Shown here: piece after piece, positions 46,887-55,699 of the stretch
Layout of the letters: each line of letters opens with the position of its first letter
How positions within the stretch are numbered: the stretch's first letter is position 1
Assembly: GCA_963845735.1 (NCBI GenBank)
Contig: CAWJTR010000001.1
Location: 241,919-305,918, forward strand
Length of the DNA: 64,000 nucleotides
Direction of reading: 5' to 3'
From: an uncultured Alphaproteobacteria bacterium
Lineage (GTDB): Bacteria > Pseudomonadota > Alphaproteobacteria > ATCC43930 > CGMCC-115725
Position numbers and translations under genes: made by a program
Notes under the pieces: model-generated
Database searches by the model: none
What the model was told of the DNA's origin: nothing
The model's input: the letters and a program-made list of their open reading frames with translations, nothing else

Positions 46887-47894
46887 ATGAGCGTCGCCAC
46901 CTGGATCCATGAATTCAATGCGGCCCCGGCGGGTGCATTGCCGCGCAATGTCTATCGCTATGTGCTCTCTACCAGCGCGCCGCACCAGCTGGCGCTGCTG
47001 GCGCTGACGGCTGGCGTCGCTTTGCTTGAAGTGGTCCCGCTCGAATTGCAGCGACGGATCGTCAACGATCTGGTCAAGCACCGCCCCTATTCCTGGGTCG
47101 TTGGTTTGTGCGCGGTCTACGCTGGAGTCGTCATCGTCCAAGGCAGCGCCAAGCTTGGGCTCAACATTTATCGCGGCTGGGTCGGGGAGCAGGCCAAGCG
47201 CGATTTGCGCCACCGCGTACACACCGTTGTCGAAACTCCATCCACCGCCTCGCCGGCGGCGGAAGCGCAGGGCATCGTGATCTCGATGATCGTCGCCGAG
47301 GTCGAACCGATCGGCGGCTTTGTCGGCGAGAGCGTGTCGGAGCCGCTGCTGCAGGGTGGCATCATGGCCTCGGTGCTCGCCTATCTGATCCATATCGATC
47401 CGTGGATGGCGCTCGCGGCCATCGGGCTCTTCATCCCGCAGCTGATATTTGTTCCGCTGCTGCAATCGGCGGTCAACCGGCGCACCGGCGCGCGCATCCA
47501 GGTGTTGCGCCAGCTCGGTATCGCGATGATCGACCGGGATGACGACGCCGAGGACGAACGACGAATTGACCAAGCGTTCGCGCTCGATATGGGAATCTTT
47601 AAGATAAAATTTACGATGAATTTCTTGATGAACCTTTGCAATCACCTGCAGCGCGTATCGGCCTTACTCGTCGGCGGCTGGTGGGTGTATACCAACCACC
47701 TCGAAATTGGCGGCGTGGTCGCCTTCATCTCGGGGATCGGGCGGTTGAACGATCCGTGGGGCGACCTGGTCAATTACTTCCGCGACCTCAATGTCACCCA
47801 GGTCAAATACCGCCTGCTGGCCGACGCGGTCGATCAGCTGGCCCCAGCCGGCCCCGACCGCGCTGTTGGGCCCTTGACTGCAGCGGCCGGTTGA
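46887..47894 (+). CDS. ABC-exporter-type six-transmembrane-domain protein without a nucleotide-binding domain
   Basis: ABC_membrane-like TM organisation ending ...NVTQVKYRLLADAVDQL, where an NBD would normally begin. A stop follows, and the next gene is an MFS transporter. Confidence 0.6.
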   Translation: MSVATWIHEFNAAPAGALPRNVYRYVLSTSAPHQLALLALTAGVALLEVVPLELQRRIVNDLVKHRPYSWVVGLCAVYAGVVIVQGSAKLGLNIYRGWVGEQAKRDLRHRVHTVVETPSTASPAAEAQGIVISMIVAEVEPIGGFVGESVSEPLLQGGIMASVLAYLIHIDPWMALAAIGLFIPQLIFVPLLQSAVNRRTGARIQVLRQLGIAMIDRDDDAEDERRIDQAFALDMGIFKIKFTMNFLMNLCNHLQRVSALLVGGWWVYTNHLEIGGVVAFISGIGRLNDPWGDLVNYFRDLNVTQVKYRLLADAVDQLAPAGPDRAVGPLTAAAG

Positions 47895-47975
47895 CGGCCC
47901 GGTGGTCCAGCGCCTATTCGTTCAACCAACGCGAACGAAAGGGCCGCCGGCGACGGCCGGAGAGGGGAGTAAGAA

Positions 47976-49532
47976 ATGCTTGGACAGACTTCGGACGATT
48001 TGCTGGCGTTGTTCGATACGGCACCGCTCAACCGCCGCTATTGGGTCAGCTTTGTGCTGCTCTCGGCGCTGTTCGTCCTCGAATTCTTCGATTTTCTGGT
48101 GGTTGGTTACCTGCTTGCGGTGCTCGGACCGCAATGGCACCTGACCTACGGCCAATCGGCGCTGATCCTTTACAGCGGGGGCATTGGCTCGATCCTGGGT
48201 GCGCTGGTCTTCGGCGGGTTCGCCGATATGTGGGGCCGCAAGTCTCAGATGATCATCGGCACCTTTATCTGTGCCGTTGCCGCTGGCCTGATCGGCCTCG
48301 TGCCGAGCGGGTCGTGGCAGACCTTTGCGTTCCTGCGCTTTTTTGTCGGTGTCGGCCTGACAGCGGGTGTGACACCCTCCCTGACGATCCTGGTCGAGCT
48401 GACCCCGACCCGGCGCCGCACCCTGCTGACCAGCTTCTACATCGTCTTCGCGTCGGCGGGCGGTCTGCTCGCCTCGACCACCTCGGCGGCGCTGCTCTCG
48501 GCGCTTGGGTGGCGCGGCGTCGCGATGCTCGGCGTTGCACCGGCCTTTGTCGGCATACTCATCTGGATCTTCGTGCCCGAGTCGGTGCGGTGGCTCGTGG
48601 CCAAGGGGCGATTCGCCGAAGCCCGGACCGGGGTCGCGCAACAGCTCGACCTCCCACTCCAATCGGTTCCGTTGCCGACCGTCCGGCCAGCAATCCAGCC
48701 GCGCGGGAAGCTATCGGAACTTTATCATCAGCCTCGCATGTTCTGGGAGACCGTGCTGATCTGGGGCGGCTCTTCGACGGCAGGCTACGGCGTCTATCTG
48801 TGGGGACCGACGATCGTCGCAATGGTGCTCAAGGTTCCGGTCCCGCAGGCCGCCGCGTATTTTATTTTCGTCGCCCTTGGGGGCGTCGTCGGCAAGATTT
48901 TCGTTACCTTCCTGGCGCCGCTGATGGGCCGGCGTCCGCTCGGCGTCCTTTGGGGGTTCGGCGGGGTCATCGCGCTCGCGGCCGCAGGCTACTACCACGA
49001 TGTCGTCGTCGTCGGTTTGCCGCTGATGGTGATTTTGCTGTGTGCCTCGACTTTCTTCATCGAAGGCGGTTTCTCGAACCTTGCCCCGTACACGGTCGAG
49101 AGCTATGGCGTGAACCTTGGCGCCCGTGCCTCGGGTCTAGGCCAGGCGGCGAACGGAGTCGGCAAGATCCTCGGCCCGTTGAGCTTGGCGCTGATCGCCG
49201 GCACCAGCAACATCCTGTCGCCCAAGGCAACGGCGGATGCGGTGCTGCCGGCCTACCTGTTCCTCGCCTTCTGCATGGCGCTGGTCGGATTGTCGTTTCT
49301 GATCCTGGGGGTCGAGACCCACGGCAGGGCGATGGGGGTCGGCGCCGACGCCAGATTCGACCCGGCGGCGGCCGTCGGTGCTCGGCACCGAGGCACGCTG
49401 AGGCAGCCGGCTACGGCGCGCGCGCGGCTTCGCGGCAGACGCCGACGCGGCGTGCGTTCTTGCCCCAATAAAAGAGCGGCGGCTCGCCGGCAGCGATGCC
49501 GCTGCGCAGCGCTACGGCGCGCGCCAGCATGA
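47976..49532 (+). CDS. MFS transporter (sugar-porter-like). The 3' ~130 nt are probably out of frame.
   Basis: 12 TM helices and a GRK-type loop motif (ADMWGRKS). The tail after ILGVETHGRAMG is Arg-rich nonsense and overlaps the convergent Nudix gene by 122 nt. A G5 run at ~49337 gives an alternative stop at 49399-49401. Confidence 0.8.
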   Translation: MLGQTSDDLLALFDTAPLNRRYWVSFVLLSALFVLEFFDFLVVGYLLAVLGPQWHLTYGQSALILYSGGIGSILGALVFGGFADMWGRKSQMIIGTFICAVAAGLIGLVPSGSWQTFAFLRFFVGVGLTAGVTPSLTILVELTPTRRRTLLTSFYIVFASAGGLLASTTSAALLSALGWRGVAMLGVAPAFVGILIWIFVPESVRWLVAKGRFAEARTGVAQQLDLPLQSVPLPTVRPAIQPRGKLSELYHQPRMFWETVLIWGGSSTAGYGVYLWGPTIVAMVLKVPVPQAAAYFIFVALGGVVGKIFVTFLAPLMGRRPLGVLWGFGGVIALAAAGYYHDVVVVGLPLMVILLCASTFFIEGGFSNLAPYTVESYGVNLGARASGLGQAANGVGKILGPLSLALIAGTSNILSPKATADAVLPAYLFLAFCMALVGLSFLILGVETHGRAMGVGADARFDPAAAVGARHRGTLRQPATARARLRGRRRRGVRSCPNKRAAARRQRCRCAALRRAPA

Positions 49533-50128
49533 AGCGGGTAACGTCGCGCAGCCCGTCCTCCAGATCGCCGGTGCCCAAGGGGTGCCAGCGCACGTCTTCG
49601 AGTTCCGTGCTCGCCATCGGCTCCCCAAAGACGCTTTCACCGTCCGCCAGAAAGAACCGGGTGTTGAAACGGCGGCTCGAATGCGACGGGGTGATCGCTC
49701 GACCGACATAGGTCAGCAGATCCATCGCCGCCGCGAGGCCGCGCCGGCGGTAGGCCCGCTCGATCGCGCCCTCCGCTGGCGTGCTCAAATCCGACGACGT
49801 GGCCTCGGCCGGACGGCCGACCAGGACGCCCACTTCCTCCCAGGTCTCCCGCAGCGCCGCCCTGGCCGCCCGCGCGAGCCTCGGAGCGAGCCAGCTCGGT
49901 CGCGGTCTCGACCATCCAGGGACGCCGATCCGGCGGGTCGATGGCGCCGCCGGGAAAGACATAGACGCCAGGCATGAACCGCGCGGCGAGCGGACGGCGG
50001 CCGACCAGGACTTCGAGCGTGGCGCCCGCGCCGCGCAGCAGGACCAGCGAGGCAGCGTCGCGCGGCCGCACCGCCGATTTTCGTTCTGTCGTCGACGCTC
50101 GAAATTCCTGGACCGGCGCATCGTTCAT
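49411..50128 (-). pseudogene. NUDIX hydrolase, one +1 frame break near 49888
   Basis: MNDAPVQEF...LVGRRPLAARFMPGVYVFPGGAID in ORF 49637..50245. Nudix box LRETWEEVGV and the remainder are in ORF 49411..50121. Confidence 0.8.
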
Positions 50129-50174: not shown

Positions 50175-50541
50175 TCACCCAGGGTTACGGCGGGCGCGCT
50201 CGATCGCGGCGATCCAGGTTTCGATCGCCCGGCGTAGCTCGCCAAAGCCGTAATGCTCGGGACGCGAATCCTCGATGACGGCGTTGCGGATCGTAACTCG
50301 ATCAGGGGAGATCGCGATCGGAATAGGCATTGCCTACCGCTGCCGGCTGCGGCGCTTCGCCGCGCTCCACCGCGCTAATCTCGGCCACCAATGCCCGGGC
50401 AGCGGCAAGATCGCCCTGCACGTCGCTTTGCAGAAAGCTCGCCAGAATTTCGCCGTGGCGGCCGCTGCCTGGACGTGCGCGGCCTTCGAGGTGTCCCGTC
50501 CGGTGCCGCCGGACGGTGATAAGTCCGGGCGGAGACATCAC
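50175..50541 (-). pseudogene. Small unknown protein (~121 aa after repairing a +1 break in a G4 run at ~50306). Candidate immunity partner of the EndoU-like gene.
   Basis: The start (GTGATG) overlaps the EndoU TGA. Sequence ...LASFLQSDVQGDLAAARALVAEISAVERGE...DL | PDRVTIRNAVIEDSRPEHYGFGELRRAIETWIAAIERARRNPG. Confidence 0.45.
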
Positions 50542-51035
50542 GGGCCGCGCAGCGGGTAGGCCGCGTCAATTCGGCCGCGTTGATACCAGCCCTCGATCGC
50601 AAAGCCGTGTCCCGAATCACCGGAAAACTCGCCATCGCCGCGCATTTGTCCGTGATGGAAGGCGGCGAGCACCGCCTCGATGACCTCGTCATCGGACATC
50701 GCGTCCGGGAAAAAGGTCGAGGAAGCCCGCTTGTCGATCCATTCACCGCTCGCCGGATCGCGCAGAGCAACACGGGCGCGATAGACGCCGTTCGCGTCCG
50801 GCGGCTGGACGATCCGCAGCACGCGAGCACTCGGCGGGTCGACCCCGTTCGGCCGGTGGTGATAGCCGACCGCCTCCCCGCGGCGGTTGATTGCGCCGGT
50901 CTGGATATGGGCAATGTTGATCGGCGGATCGGTTGCCGTCCATTGGCCCGCCGGCGCGATGTCGCGGGCAGAAAGCCCCGCCGACAGCAGAACCAGCAGT
51001 GCTGACACGAAGATCGCGTGCGAGAAGCGCTTCAT
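50538..51035 (-). CDS. Secreted EndoU-family (EndoU_bacteria-like) ribonuclease toxin-domain protein
   Basis: Sec signal peptide MKRFSHAIFVSALLVLLSAGLSA. Then AHIQTGAINRRGEAVGYHH...DANGVYRARV...KRASSTFFPDAMSDDEVIEAVLAAF...GFAIEGWYQRGRIDAAYPL matches the characteristic HIxxGEinxxGxaxGxHH...STFFP...I.sAyP pattern. Confidence 0.7.
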   Translation of the reverse strand: MKRFSHAIFVSALLVLLSAGLSARDIAPAGQWTATDPPINIAHIQTGAINRRGEAVGYHHRPNGVDPPSARVLRIVQPPDANGVYRARVALRDPASGEWIDKRASSTFFPDAMSDDEVIEAVLAAFHHGQMRGDGEFSGDSGHGFAIEGWYQRGRIDAAYPLRGP

Positions 51036-51068: not shown

Positions 51069-51392
51069 TCACCGCCCCGCGAACACGTCCTTTGCCACCA
51101 ATGCCGCGGTCATCGCCGCCGGCCACCCGGCGTAGAAGGCGAGATGGGTGATCAGCTCACCCAACTCCTCCTTGCTGAGCCCGTTATCGAGTGCGCGGCC
51201 GAGATGCCCGACCAGTTGCCTCTCGCGTCCGAGCGCGACCAGGGTCGCCACCGTGATCAGGCTGCGGTCGCGTTTCGACAGGCCTGGGCGCTCCCAGACA
51301 TCGCCATAGACAACCTTGTCAGCGAGATCGATCAGTTTCGGCACGATCGGCCGAACCTGTTCGCGCGCTGGTGAGGGCGGGGTTACCGGCAT
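51069..51392 (-). CDS. Carboxymuconolactone decarboxylase (AhpD-like) family protein
   Basis: YGDVWERPGLSKRDRSLITVATLVALGR...ELITHLAFYAGWP, 107 aa. Confidence 0.85.
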   Translation of the reverse strand: MPVTPPSPAREQVRPIVPKLIDLADKVVYGDVWERPGLSKRDRSLITVATLVALGRERQLVGHLGRALDNGLSKEELGELITHLAFYAGWPAAMTAALVAKDVFAGR

Positions 51393-53075: not shown

Positions 53076-54312
53076 ATGCCGGCCATCGACGGACAGCGCG
53101 TCGTCGCCGACCTCCGTCGGCTTGCTGAATTCGGGCGCTATAAAACTGGTGTCCATCGCCCGACTTATTCGCCGGCCGATGTCGAGTTCGCGGCATTGGC
53201 TCGCCGGAAAGCTGCGCGAGGCCGGGCTCGAGCCGGTGATCGACGGCATCGGCAATGTGATCGGCCGCAATCCCCGGGCGCGGCGGCGGCTGCTGGTCGG
53301 CTCACACAGCGAGACCCAGCCCTATGGCGGCTGGCTCGATGGCGCCTTGGGGGTGATTTACGGGCTGGAACTGGCCTGCGCCTTCGCCGCCGACCCGGAT
53401 TGCGTCGAGCTCGGTATCGAGGTCGCCGCCTGGGCCGACGAGGAGGGCCATTACGGCGGCTATCTCGGCAGCCGCTCGTTCGTCGGCGCGCTCGACGAGG
53501 ACGAGATCGACCAGGCGCGAGGCCGCGACGACGGGACGCCGTTGCGCGAGGCGCTGGCGCGGGCCGGGTTCGCCGGCCGGCCGCGCGAACATTTCGAACC
53601 CGGCCGCCATATCGGTTATCTCGAAGCGCACATCGAGCAGGGCGACACCCTCGACACGAGCGGGCTGCGTATCGGTGTCGTCGAGGCGATCGTGGGCATC
53701 CGTAATTTCCGGCTCTCCTTGATCGGCGAGCAGAACCATGCCGGCACGACGCGGATGATCAGGCGCAAGGATGCCGGGGTGGCGATGGTGCAACTGGCCA
53801 CGCGCATCCACGATCGTTTCCCCGAGATCGCCGGCCCGCGTACGGTGTGGACGATCGGCCGTATGCTGTTGGAGCCGAACGCGCCCTCGGTCGTCCCCGG
53901 CCATGCCGAAATGCAGGTTCAGTTCCGCGATACCGACCCAGGGCGCCTCGACCTGTTCGAGAAGAAATTGCGCGAGCTCGTGGACGAAGCCGACCGCGCG
54001 GGGCCCTGCCATTGCGCGCTAGAGCCGATCGGGCGGACCGAGCCGCGGCCGATGGATAAGGGCTTTCAGGCGCTGATCGAGGCGGCGGCCGAGGACCATG
54101 CGCCCGGCATGCACATGCGCATGCCGAGTGCGGCCGGCCATGACGCCGCGATCCTGTCCGAACGCATGCCCGCCGGGATGATGTTCATCCCCAGTCTCGG
54201 CGGCATCAGCCATCACTGGTCGGAAGACACCAAGGAAGAAGACATCGTCCTCGGCGCCCAAATCTTCGCCGACGCCGCAGCGCGCATCCTGCGGTCGGCC
54301 GATCGATTCTAA
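53076..54312 (+). pseudogene. Zn-dependent hydantoinase/carbamoylase-family amidase (M20), one +1 frame break near 53187
   Basis: MPAIDGQRVVADLRRLAEFGRYKTGVHRPTYSPADVE in ORF 53076..53705, then SRHWLAGKLREAGLEPVIDGIGNVIGR...GSHSETQPYGGWLDGALG in ORF 53122..54312. Confidence 0.85.
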
Positions 54313-54316
54313 GCGC

Positions 54317-55670
54317 ATGGTCGCGTCGGAACACGATCTCAAAGCACGGGCGATCGGCCACGCCTGTCTGGTGCTTTATCGGGAAGGGGCGAGCCCGCTG
54401 TTGCTGACCGACCCCGTGGCTTGTCGGCTCCGTCTATTGGCGAAGCTGGTGGTTGCAGAACTATCCGAGCGTCGATGAAATCAACTGGCTAGCGACCAGC
54501 ACTCATGTTTATGTCACCCACGAGCACCCCGATCATTTCCACATGCCGTCGATCCGCCGTCTCGGCGCCGGCCCGGCTTACCTGTTTCCAGCTCTGGCCG
54601 AGCGCGGTTATCTCGACTATCTCGCCGGGAGAGGCTACCGCTCGGAAAGCGTCGAGCCGCTGCGGTGGCGACAAATCGACCAAGGCGTGTCGATCTTGTC
54701 GATTCCGCTATGGAACGACGATAGCCTGCTGCTTATCGACACTCCGAACGCGTTGATCCTTAACCTCAACGATGCAAAGCCGCTCCCGCCGGTGCTGCGC
54801 GCCCTTCACCGCGCCGCCCAGCGCATCGCCAAACCGCGGGTGCTGCTGTGCAGCTATTCGCCAGCGAGCGTAATCAACAGCTTTCTCGACGAAAACGGAA
54901 TCGTCCCGCTCAGGCACCCTCGACAATACGTTGACTATATCTGCTGATTATGCGAGCGGATCGAGATCAACTACTACATGCCGTTCGCGAGTCAGGCCTT
55001 CTTTCTCCGAGCCGACAGCCGCGGGGCTAACGACTATCGCACAACCTATGAGCATCTTTGCCGGTATTGGCAATCAAATGCCCGGCTGCTGCCTCCCTAT
55101 ACGACCCCCGACCTCGCCGATTTCACCCATACCTCGATCCCGCCCGAACACTATCGGCCGATGTCGCCGGCAAAGCTCGAAGCTGTGACCGGGCAGCGCG
55201 CAGCCGAGGAGGAGACGGCGGAGATTTCAGCCGCGGAAGTAGCGCTGCTCGCGCGCAAGCTGAACGCTTTTCGCTGGCTGTTATGGCTGCTGTTTCGGCG
55301 CAGGTTCGCCTTTCGGCTCGGCGAGCATTGCTTCGAGTACGATCCGGCGCACGGGTGGCTTCGCGACCGCGGCATCACCCGCGGAGGACAGGGAGATTTC
55401 GTCGTCGAAGTGCCGAAGCTGACAATGAAGGAGGCTCTGCGGAACAACCACCTCACCGATCTCGGCATCACGATGTTCGTTCGCATCCGGCCGCTGCGGA
55501 GGATAGATCCCCGAAAAGCCTACGGCCTGTTCGTGCTTTTCCAATTCGACGATTACGGGCACCTCGCCGGTATCGGAGCGCTGCTGCGCTGGCTGCGGCG
55601 CGGAATCAGATATTCGTTCGTTTTGCGGCTTCACCCGCCGCCGCGGCCGGTGGCCCCTCGGGCCGGCTAG
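54317..55670 (+). pseudogene. MBL-fold hydrolase-like protein with an unknown C-terminal extension; +1 break near 54416 and an in-frame TGA at 54945-54947
   Basis: MVASEHDLKARAIGHACLVLYREGASPLLLTDP | WLVGSVYWRSWWLQNYPS...YVTHEHPDHFH...QYVDYIC * LCERIEINYYMPFASQAFFL... ORFs 54453..54947 and 54978..55670 share one frame. Confidence 0.65.
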
Positions 55671-55699
55671 GCTGGGACGATCAGGCGGGGCCGTCGTGA

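Follow-up and report, generated by a model that had tools for sequence, protein, structure and literature searches.

An EndoU-family RNase gene and an overlapping YacL-like gene in uncultured Alphaproteobacteria: a candidate exported RNase and inhibitor pair

The EndoU gene and its export signal

We analysed a 64,000-nucleotide (nt) stretch of DNA from an uncultured alphaproteobacterium (the window), in which two overlapping, co-directional genes lie between positions 50175 and 51035. The upstream gene encodes a small protein of the EndoU ribonuclease (RNase) family, and the downstream gene, called the partner here, encodes a product of about 120 amino acids (aa). A first-pass annotation made from the letters alone had proposed that the two form a toxin/immunity pair. 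For comparison we scanned related loci using one genome per species, which gave 42 loci, all from Stellaceae or from metagenome-assembled genomes (MAGs) of uncultured Alphaproteobacteria, and 41 of these were complete. The TGATG overlap that had been described between the two genes was confirmed in the window (Table 1). About 30 of the junctions in 40 related loci had the form T(G/A)ATG, a few had NTGA overlaps, and the rest had gaps of 5-38 nt.

Table 1. Features of the EndoU locus and its surroundings, in window positions (ORF, open reading frame; dN/dS, ratio of nonsynonymous to synonymous substitution rates; CMD, carboxymuconolactone decarboxylase)
Feature	Position	Strand	Evidence or remark
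EndoU-family RNase gene, 165 aa including signal peptide	50538..51035	minus	ORF, PF14436 match, homologues, dN/dS 0.19
Predicted Sec signal peptide, aa 1-23	50967..51035	minus	hydropathy heuristic
TGATG stop/start overlap of the EndoU and partner genes	50536..50540	minus	EndoU stop TGA 50540-50538, partner start ATG 50538-50536
Partner gene, 120 aa with the extra base left out; putative EndoU inhibitor, YacL/UPF0231-like	50175..50538	minus	
1-nt insertion splitting the partner frame, GG versus G in relatives	50320..50321	.	DNA alignments with related loci L001-L004 and L007
NUDIX-domain gene, downstream of the pair	49411..50128	minus	broken by a private 1-nt insertion at 49893
CMD-family gene, upstream of the pair, 33 nt from the EndoU start	51069..51392	minus	Pfam CMD, 79 bits
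M20 peptidase gene	~53076..54312	plus	broken by a private 1-nt insertion at 53188

The 165-aa product matched the Pfam family EndoU_bacteria (PF14436) with 71.5 bits (E = 1.1e-19) against a gathering cut-off of 25.3, and the match spanned residues 41-162 of the protein and positions 5-128 of the 129 in the profile, in agreement with the EndoU domain recognised in the first pass. A search of ~5.8 billion proteins returned 351 homologues. The 120 of these that were listed measured 153-205 aa, nearly all of them 160-180 aa, and every one carried PF14436; where a source was named it was a member of the Stellaceae or a MAG of uncultured Alphaproteobacteria. Median pairwise dN/dS for the EndoU gene was 0.19, a value that indicates purifying selection.

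An alignment of 27 family members showed H43, H59, H60, K102, S106 and T107 to be invariant. H43, H59, K102 and S106/T107 were also kept in five remote stand-alone EndoU proteins and in the EndoU domain at the C-terminus of an Rhs protein, all of which aligned to the window protein across all conserved motifs, while H60 was not kept outside the Stellaceae-like lineage. Both catalytic His residues that were to be looked for in an alignment, H43 and H59, were thus in place. The order H...H...K...S/T agrees with the published EndoU signature, given for Tox-EndoU as H,H,[SNT],[SNT] (PMC3482391), and a His-His-Lys triad has been described in CdiA-CT STECO31 (PMC9086364). We mapped the catalytic residues onto the solved enzymes from motif order and spacing, with no structural superposition. 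On sequence grounds, the 165-aa product is a bona fide EndoU_bacteria protein, which would be expected to act as an RNase and, by family precedent, may use metal-independent His/His/Lys chemistry.

The N-terminus of the protein had the layout of a Sec signal peptide, with MKRFSH as the n-region, AIFVSALLVLLSAGL as the h-region and LSA as the c-region, followed by predicted cleavage before RD. The 12-aa window of highest hydropathy had a mean Kyte-Doolittle value of 2.74, in keeping with the signal peptide that had been placed ahead of the EndoU domain. Hydrophobic N-terminal segments (12-residue mean hydropathy of 2.0 or more) were present in 117 of 120 EndoU homologues as against 1 of 120 partner proteins, and for this reason the partner is predicted to be cytoplasmic. 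A site with small residues at -3 and -1 lay just upstream of a W-T-x-T-x-P motif in all 117 EndoU homologues with that motif. The first ~25 residues varied in sequence yet stayed hydrophobic across the 27-member alignment, and the remote stand-alone EndoU proteins also had hydrophobic, signal-like N-terminal segments. One of these (L046, 2504-3001) starts with MNLKLLIPLSLAWLLLLGC..., which resembles a lipobox, and some EndoU proteins may be exported as lipoproteins and not in soluble form.

The partner gene and its relation to YacL

As assembled, the window carries the partner in two pieces, the ORFs 50302..50541 and 50175..50330. Read from its ATG, the frame runs for 78 codons before a stop, and the second frame carries on for 51 codons to 50175. 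A downstream ORF of ~121 aa with a +1 break in a G4 run had been reported in the first pass; the frame of about 120 aa and its break were both found, but the G4 run (50305-50308) does not hold the extra base, which lies in the plus-strand GG at 50320-50321. The coding strand of the window reads TATT-CC-GATC, whereas all five close relatives (L001-L004 and L007, with 88-94% nucleotide identity to the window across 6.3 kb) read TATT-C-GATC. Once the junction is corrected, the translation runs ...GNAYS-IAISPDRVTIRN..., just as it does in the relatives. Most of the 40 related loci carry the partner as a single intact ORF of 118-131 aa; 34 of the 40 passed our intactness filter, and median pairwise dN/dS was 0.29, again pointing to purifying selection. 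Because the ORF is intact in relatives and under purifying selection, we consider the partner a real gene. A few relatives (L004, L007, L008, L024 and L031) show their own frameshifts. Programmed frameshifting was considered and rejected, since most relatives use one frame and only the window has the extra base.

The interrupted frame could also mean that the locus is decaying, with the partner a genuine pseudogene and the pair no longer functional in the window genome. The break at 50320-50321 is present in the sequence as assembled, but it is one of three window-private 1-nt insertions within 6.3 kb (53188, 50321 and 49893), each inside a conserved gene, the other two falling in the M20 peptidase and NUDIX genes. 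The five close relatives also had scattered private 1-nt indels, between 2 and 14 in each assembly over the same stretch, as is to be expected of assemblies prone to error. No damage is seen in the EndoU gene, which keeps all of its catalytic residues and would be hazardous without a partner, and the partner sequence, apart from the single base, is conserved at 88-92% amino-acid identity to the close relatives. We therefore regard decay of the pair as improbable. With three frameshifts in three neighbouring conserved genes, and with all compared assemblies prone to indels, the break is probably a single-base assembly error. The insertions at 49893 and 53188, together with the many private 1-nt indels in related MAGs, indicate that the window assembly is indel-prone and that ORF calls across the window need care.

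The first-pass annotation had been unable to place the downstream ORF in any family. We found instead that the joined partner matched UPF0231 (PF06062, threshold 25 bits) with 25.1 bits (E = 2.5e-5), while the partner as assembled reached a sub-threshold 12.5 bits. A close homologue (P0121) scored 23.8 bits, and 28 of 29 partner family members matched UPF0231 at E of 0.1 or below. A total of 327 partner homologues were detectable, about as many as for the EndoU family, and a HMMER family profile run against 1.84 billion cluster representatives retrieved 229 partner relatives at E of 0.001 or below, mostly 105-125 aa long. UPF0231 matches were observed in 34 of 58 members of a broad partner sample, with a best E-value of 3.9e-9. 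The corresponding broad alignment matched E. coli YacL in hhalign (E = 5.8e-5, probability 66%), whereas a narrow alignment of Stellaceae partners did not do so significantly (E = 0.39). Partner and YacL/UPF0231 proteins are also alike in length, at ~110-125 aa.

The distance between the two groups was evident throughout. Remote EndoU-linked relatives scored 30-37 bits against UPF0231 as compared with 137 bits for E. coli YacL. Two motifs, D-x-Q and G-N-A, were near-invariant in the EndoU-linked partner clade, and E. coli YacL has other residues at both positions, with GHE aligned to G-N-A. Some partner-family members have already been labelled "YacL family" by NCBI/JGI; none of the NCBIfam YacL equivalog models came near threshold for the partners, and NCBIfam searches of the window proteins gave noise only. 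Weak matches to DUSAM/DUF2379 were not reproducible across the family and were dropped. These comparisons point to the partner as a divergent member of a YacL-like superfamily, a distant link at the level of the superfamily. The partner profile also matched three large proteins, P0287 (1149 aa), P0300 (735 aa) and P0321 (2230 aa), weakly and at 5-10 separate places in each; these matches may be artefacts of repeats or of low complexity, or the proteins may contain partner-like modules in arrays.

Co-occurrence of partner and EndoU genes

A partner homologue was observed on the same strand, starting no more than ~60 nt from the EndoU stop, in 41 of the 41 complete related loci. A single type of the pair occupies one syntenic chromosomal site throughout the lineage, where the gene order is MFS (major facilitator superfamily transporter) / NUDIX / partner / EndoU / CMD / MlrC. 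Compared with the window, the mature EndoU domain averaged 80% identity across these loci and the partner 73%, and among the flanking genes the mean was 73% for NUDIX, 70% for MFS, 94% for CMD and 88% for MlrC.

The pairing extended to more distant relatives. We examined the contigs of ten remote partner relatives, ~25-35% identical to the window partner, and nine of these were informative. An EndoU_bacteria domain was encoded directly upstream of the partner in all nine, and the neighbouring genes differed each time. Six of the nine upstream EndoU proteins were stand-alone (161-177 aa), one was a 307-aa protein with extra N-terminal sequence, and one, at least 244 aa long, had EndoU as its C-terminal domain. 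The last, of at least 868 aa, combined RHS repeats (E = 3e-40) with a C-terminal EndoU_bacteria domain (E = 2.1e-25), as a classic polymorphic toxin does; the partner relative P0375 starts 12 nt after the RHS_repeat-EndoU protein. A metagenome scan with one remote partner subgroup gave 80 loci, in which EndoU was checked with a purpose-built EndoU hidden Markov model (HMM). Within that subgroup, an EndoU ORF in the same orientation immediately preceded the partner in all 61 loci with at least 450 nt of upstream sequence, and the upstream fragment remaining in the 19 shorter loci showed one in 12 instances. One upstream ORF, at least 812 aa long, carried its EndoU domain at the C-terminus.

Two other proteins were seen beside remote pairs. 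A DA1-like (PF12315) protein is encoded directly downstream of a remote partner (L050, 1072-1818), and a protein with an HNH domain is encoded upstream of the 307-aa EndoU protein (L133, 911-1387). These may be further conflict-system genes.

Since the partner follows this EndoU clade whatever the carrier, it behaves as a cognate immunity protein or inhibitor would, and unlike a chaperone for secretion or an unrelated protein from the same operon. The two genes appear to form an old, portable RNase/immunity module, which in the Stellaceae-like lineage is now a stably inherited chromosomal pair, and which evidently serves as a weapon when fused to RHS carriers. The first-pass annotation had named two observations by which its toxin/immunity reading should be judged, namely an EndoU HMM match with the catalytic His residues and conservation of the downstream ORF beside the toxin gene in other genomes. 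Both were found, and its reading was thereby supported. To the extent that comparison of sequences can speak to it, the evidence for an RNase and its inhibitor is as strong as comparative evidence gets; for the Stellaceae-like lineage, "weapon" is a less certain description than "exported RNase with a self-protecting inhibitor".

A different role for the partner was also considered, in which it is no inhibitor but a YacL-like accessory factor, perhaps one that associates with RNA polymerase, or else an export chaperone or regulator whose only tie to the RNase is co-transcription. The sole experimental datum on the family, and its one known property, is the binding of E. coli YacL to RNA polymerase and NusG (PMC8196013), the partner is basic in this lineage, and it is unlike any known immunity protein. 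Such a role is nevertheless very unlikely in our judgement. The partner lies directly downstream of EndoU in every informative locus, be it stand-alone with a Sec signal, RHS or another large carrier. Canonical YacL is a distant relative (25-37 bits versus 137 bits for E. coli YacL itself), and the difference of E. coli YacL at the near-invariant motifs suggests a different function.

In E. coli, yacL lies between acnB and speD and has no EndoU neighbour. We speculate, with some reserve, that the UPF0231/YacL superfamily consisted at its root of EndoU-RNase inhibitors, from which enterobacterial YacL descends as an orphan put to another use by exaptation. E. coli Syd, a protein of the SUKH immunity superfamily (PMC3113570), would be a parallel case. 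In a limited full-text literature search we found no publication linking YacL, UPF0231, PF06062 or COG3112 to EndoU or to immunity, and none that assigns the partner to this family.

Proposed role and neighbouring genes

We propose that the pair is most probably a translationally coupled cassette of an exported EndoU RNase and a cytoplasmic YacL-like inhibitor that protects the producer, a proposal built on the conserved arrangement and motifs described above. The first gene would supply a small EndoU endoribonuclease, exported by Sec to the periplasm and possibly beyond. The second would be translated by coupling from the mRNA of the first, and its ~120-aa YacL/UPF0231-like product would stay in the cytoplasm. 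There the partner would bind and block any EndoU that had folded before export or had re-entered the cell, so that the RNA of the producer is protected. We infer both the physical inhibition by the partner and the location and target of the exported enzyme.

This logic is that of barnase and barstar, the secreted RNase of Bacillus amyloliquefaciens and its intracellular inhibitor. The window pair resembles them in joining a small predicted RNase, by its family a member of the BECR fold assemblage, which carries a predicted Sec signal but no delivery domain, to a small, putatively protective cytoplasmic protein; in its stable chromosomal inheritance; and in the presence of the Sec signal on the RNase and its absence from the inhibitor (117/120 versus 1/120 by the hydropathy heuristic). 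It differs in that its genes overlap and are co-directional, and the resemblance is functional only, with no Pfam or NCBIfam match to barnase (RNase N1/T1) or barstar. The pair is unlike type II toxin-antitoxin systems, in which the toxin is cytoplasmic and the gene of the labile antitoxin usually lies upstream, its product controlling its own expression by means of a DNA-binding domain, whereas in the window the toxin has an export signal, the order is toxin then partner, and the partner has no match to a DNA-binding domain.

The EndoU polymorphic toxins (CdiA-CT/CdiI STECO31, MafB/MafI MGI-1 NEM8013, BC_0920 and Rhs-EndoU) share with the window pair the PF14436 domain, the His/His/Lys/Ser-Thr set and an immunity gene directly downstream, which is matched here by the adjacency in 41 of 41 related, 61 of 61 metagenome and 9 of 9 remote loci, the co-occurrence in other genomes for which the first pass had asked. 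The window protein differs from them in consisting of a signal peptide and EndoU only, with no RHS, CdiA, MafB or LXG carrier. Polymorphic toxin systems in the sense of Zhang et al. (2012) have a multidomain carrier, which the window protein lacks, and they are polymorphic, with toxin and immunity types that differ among related strains and often sit in islands together with orphan cassettes, whereas the window locus is conserved and syntenic with dN/dS of 0.19 and 0.29 for its two genes. For Tox-EndoU, three immunity families have been catalogued, namely Imm-SUKH, Imm-SuFu and Imm28 (PMC3482391), and the window partner family lies outside all of them; it is also unlike CdiI STECO31, with no match in the PDB by sequence or fold.

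The exported 140-aa EndoU could alternatively act as a diffusible, bacteriocin-like toxin that kills competitors, with the partner serving only as immunity against sister cells. Experimental precedent lies on this side, as the four EndoU toxins tested, BC_0920, MafB and two CdiA-CTs (PMC9990079), account for the characterised EndoU_bacteria proteins, and all of them (the CdiA-CTs being those of STECO31 and GN05224) are antibacterial (PMC9990079, PMC4287609). The same EndoU and partner clades are found as an Rhs C-terminal domain and its downstream gene, and Zhang et al. count Sec-only ("T2SS", type II secretion system) export among the delivery modes of toxin domains (PMC3482391). The mature window protein, however, is a catalytic domain alone, without a receptor-binding or translocation module. 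As the first-pass annotation had stated, the EndoU domain stands alone: no delivery domain or secretion-system gene was found in the immediate neighbourhood of the gene, and there are no lysis genes near it. The locus is syntenic and of a single type in 41 genomes, and its mature domain is better conserved than NUDIX or MFS and has a low dN/dS, the opposite of the pattern of polymorphic-toxin warheads, which typically differ between strains. We consider a bacteriocin-like function unlikely. A barnase-barstar-like role, that is, an extracellular or periplasmic RNase with its inhibitor, was ranked above a targeted antibacterial weapon because the pair is single-type, syntenic and slowly evolving in the lineage and because the mature protein has no uptake module.

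Several observations weigh against an exported EndoU RNase with a cytoplasmic inhibitor. Structure prediction, which had been suggested for both proteins, spoke for this reading in the case of the partner, whose AlphaFold2 (AF2) model was confident (predicted local distance difference test (pLDDT) 89, predicted template modelling score 0.84), but not in the case of EndoU, whose AF2 model was poor, with a mean pLDDT of 62 and values below 50 at residues 17-64, which hold both catalytic His residues. The best EndoU-fold match of that model in the PDB was SARS-CoV-2 Nsp15, which was not significant (E = 0.19, template modelling (TM) score 0.30, probability 0.72), and a sequence-profile search of the PDB with the EndoU family gave only a chance match, to a TonB-dependent receptor (E = 0.21). 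With a low-confidence model and no significant fold match, family membership rests on the HMM and the motifs and not on the fold. The partner matched no solved immunity protein in the PDB, either by sequence profile or by fold, where the best match was an uninformative one to Pur-alpha (E = 0.16, TM 0.40); a fold search of the viral BFVD was likewise uninformative, its best matches being to uncharacterised proteins (E = 7e-3, TM 0.44). The charges of the two proteins also run counter to the comparison, since barstar is acidic and barnase basic, whereas in the Stellaceae-like lineage the median isoelectric point was 9.1 for the partner (basic) and 7.2 for the mature RNase (near neutral). The signal peptide was called by a hydropathy heuristic and not by a trained predictor. 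Finally, a real frameshift in the partner would leave the RNase gene of the window genome without protection.

Pairs of an RNase toxin and its immunity protein are familiar, and proteins are routinely annotated as "EndoU domain-containing protein", so that the EndoU gene taken alone is ordinary. Less ordinary is a partner family that accompanies one and the same EndoU clade wherever an examined locus was informative, in distant phyla and in different delivery formats. The YacL/UPF0231-like identity of the partner, with its EndoU pairing, is modestly novel and readily testable, and the distant but reproducible link gives a protein family of unknown function a testable biochemical role. If UPF0231 proteins were EndoU inhibitors, this would be the first functional handle on the conserved E. 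coli YacL and would add a widespread EndoU immunity family beyond the published catalogues. Most often the module consists of a minimal RNase exported by Sec and free of any carrier domain, and in this format it is stably inherited in soil Alphaproteobacteria and in Acidobacteriota (Thermoanaerobaculia). This suggests that diderm soil bacteria may use RNases in the periplasm or outside the cell in the manner of barnase. If it binds tightly, the new RNase and inhibitor might also find use as a genetic tool, like barnase-barstar.

The identified neighbours of the pair encode an MFS transporter, NUDIX, CMD-family, M81/MlrC peptidase, M20 peptidase and S41 peptidase proteins, while two ORFs, 46887..47894 and 54978..55670, had no Pfam match. 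A promoter and terminator scan from MlrC through CMD, EndoU and the partner to NUDIX found neither a promoter-like site nor a terminator between the genes, and the EndoU and partner genes are presumably co-transcribed. The NUDIX gene was next to the pair in 38 of 41 related loci, and its intact orthologue in L001 scored 31 bits against Pfam NUDIX. A functional link of NUDIX to the pair was rejected, as the gene was absent beside the remote pairs examined, and its adjacency is probably synteny rather than membership of the module. The CMD gene, observed in 21 of the related loci, is context and lies outside the module.

Differences in the surrounding sequence were also observed. A stretch of ~1.4 kb in the window (54293-55697), which includes the 230-aa ORF at 54978..55670, was not present in the otherwise collinear loci L001-L004 and L007, where alignments jump from 54293 to ~55697; this could be an insertion in the window genome or a deletion in the others. 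A second MFS-transporter paralogue, 73-74% identical, was observed in L001 (7159-8483), L002-L004 and L007 beside the copy shared with the window (48075-49401). Collinearity of these relatives with the window stops at 47966, and the window may lack the tandem MFS copy or differ there. Two MAGs each had two contigs bearing near-identical EndoU-partner-NUDIX regions (L005/L006 and L020/L022); the bins may mix strains, or the region may be truly duplicated.

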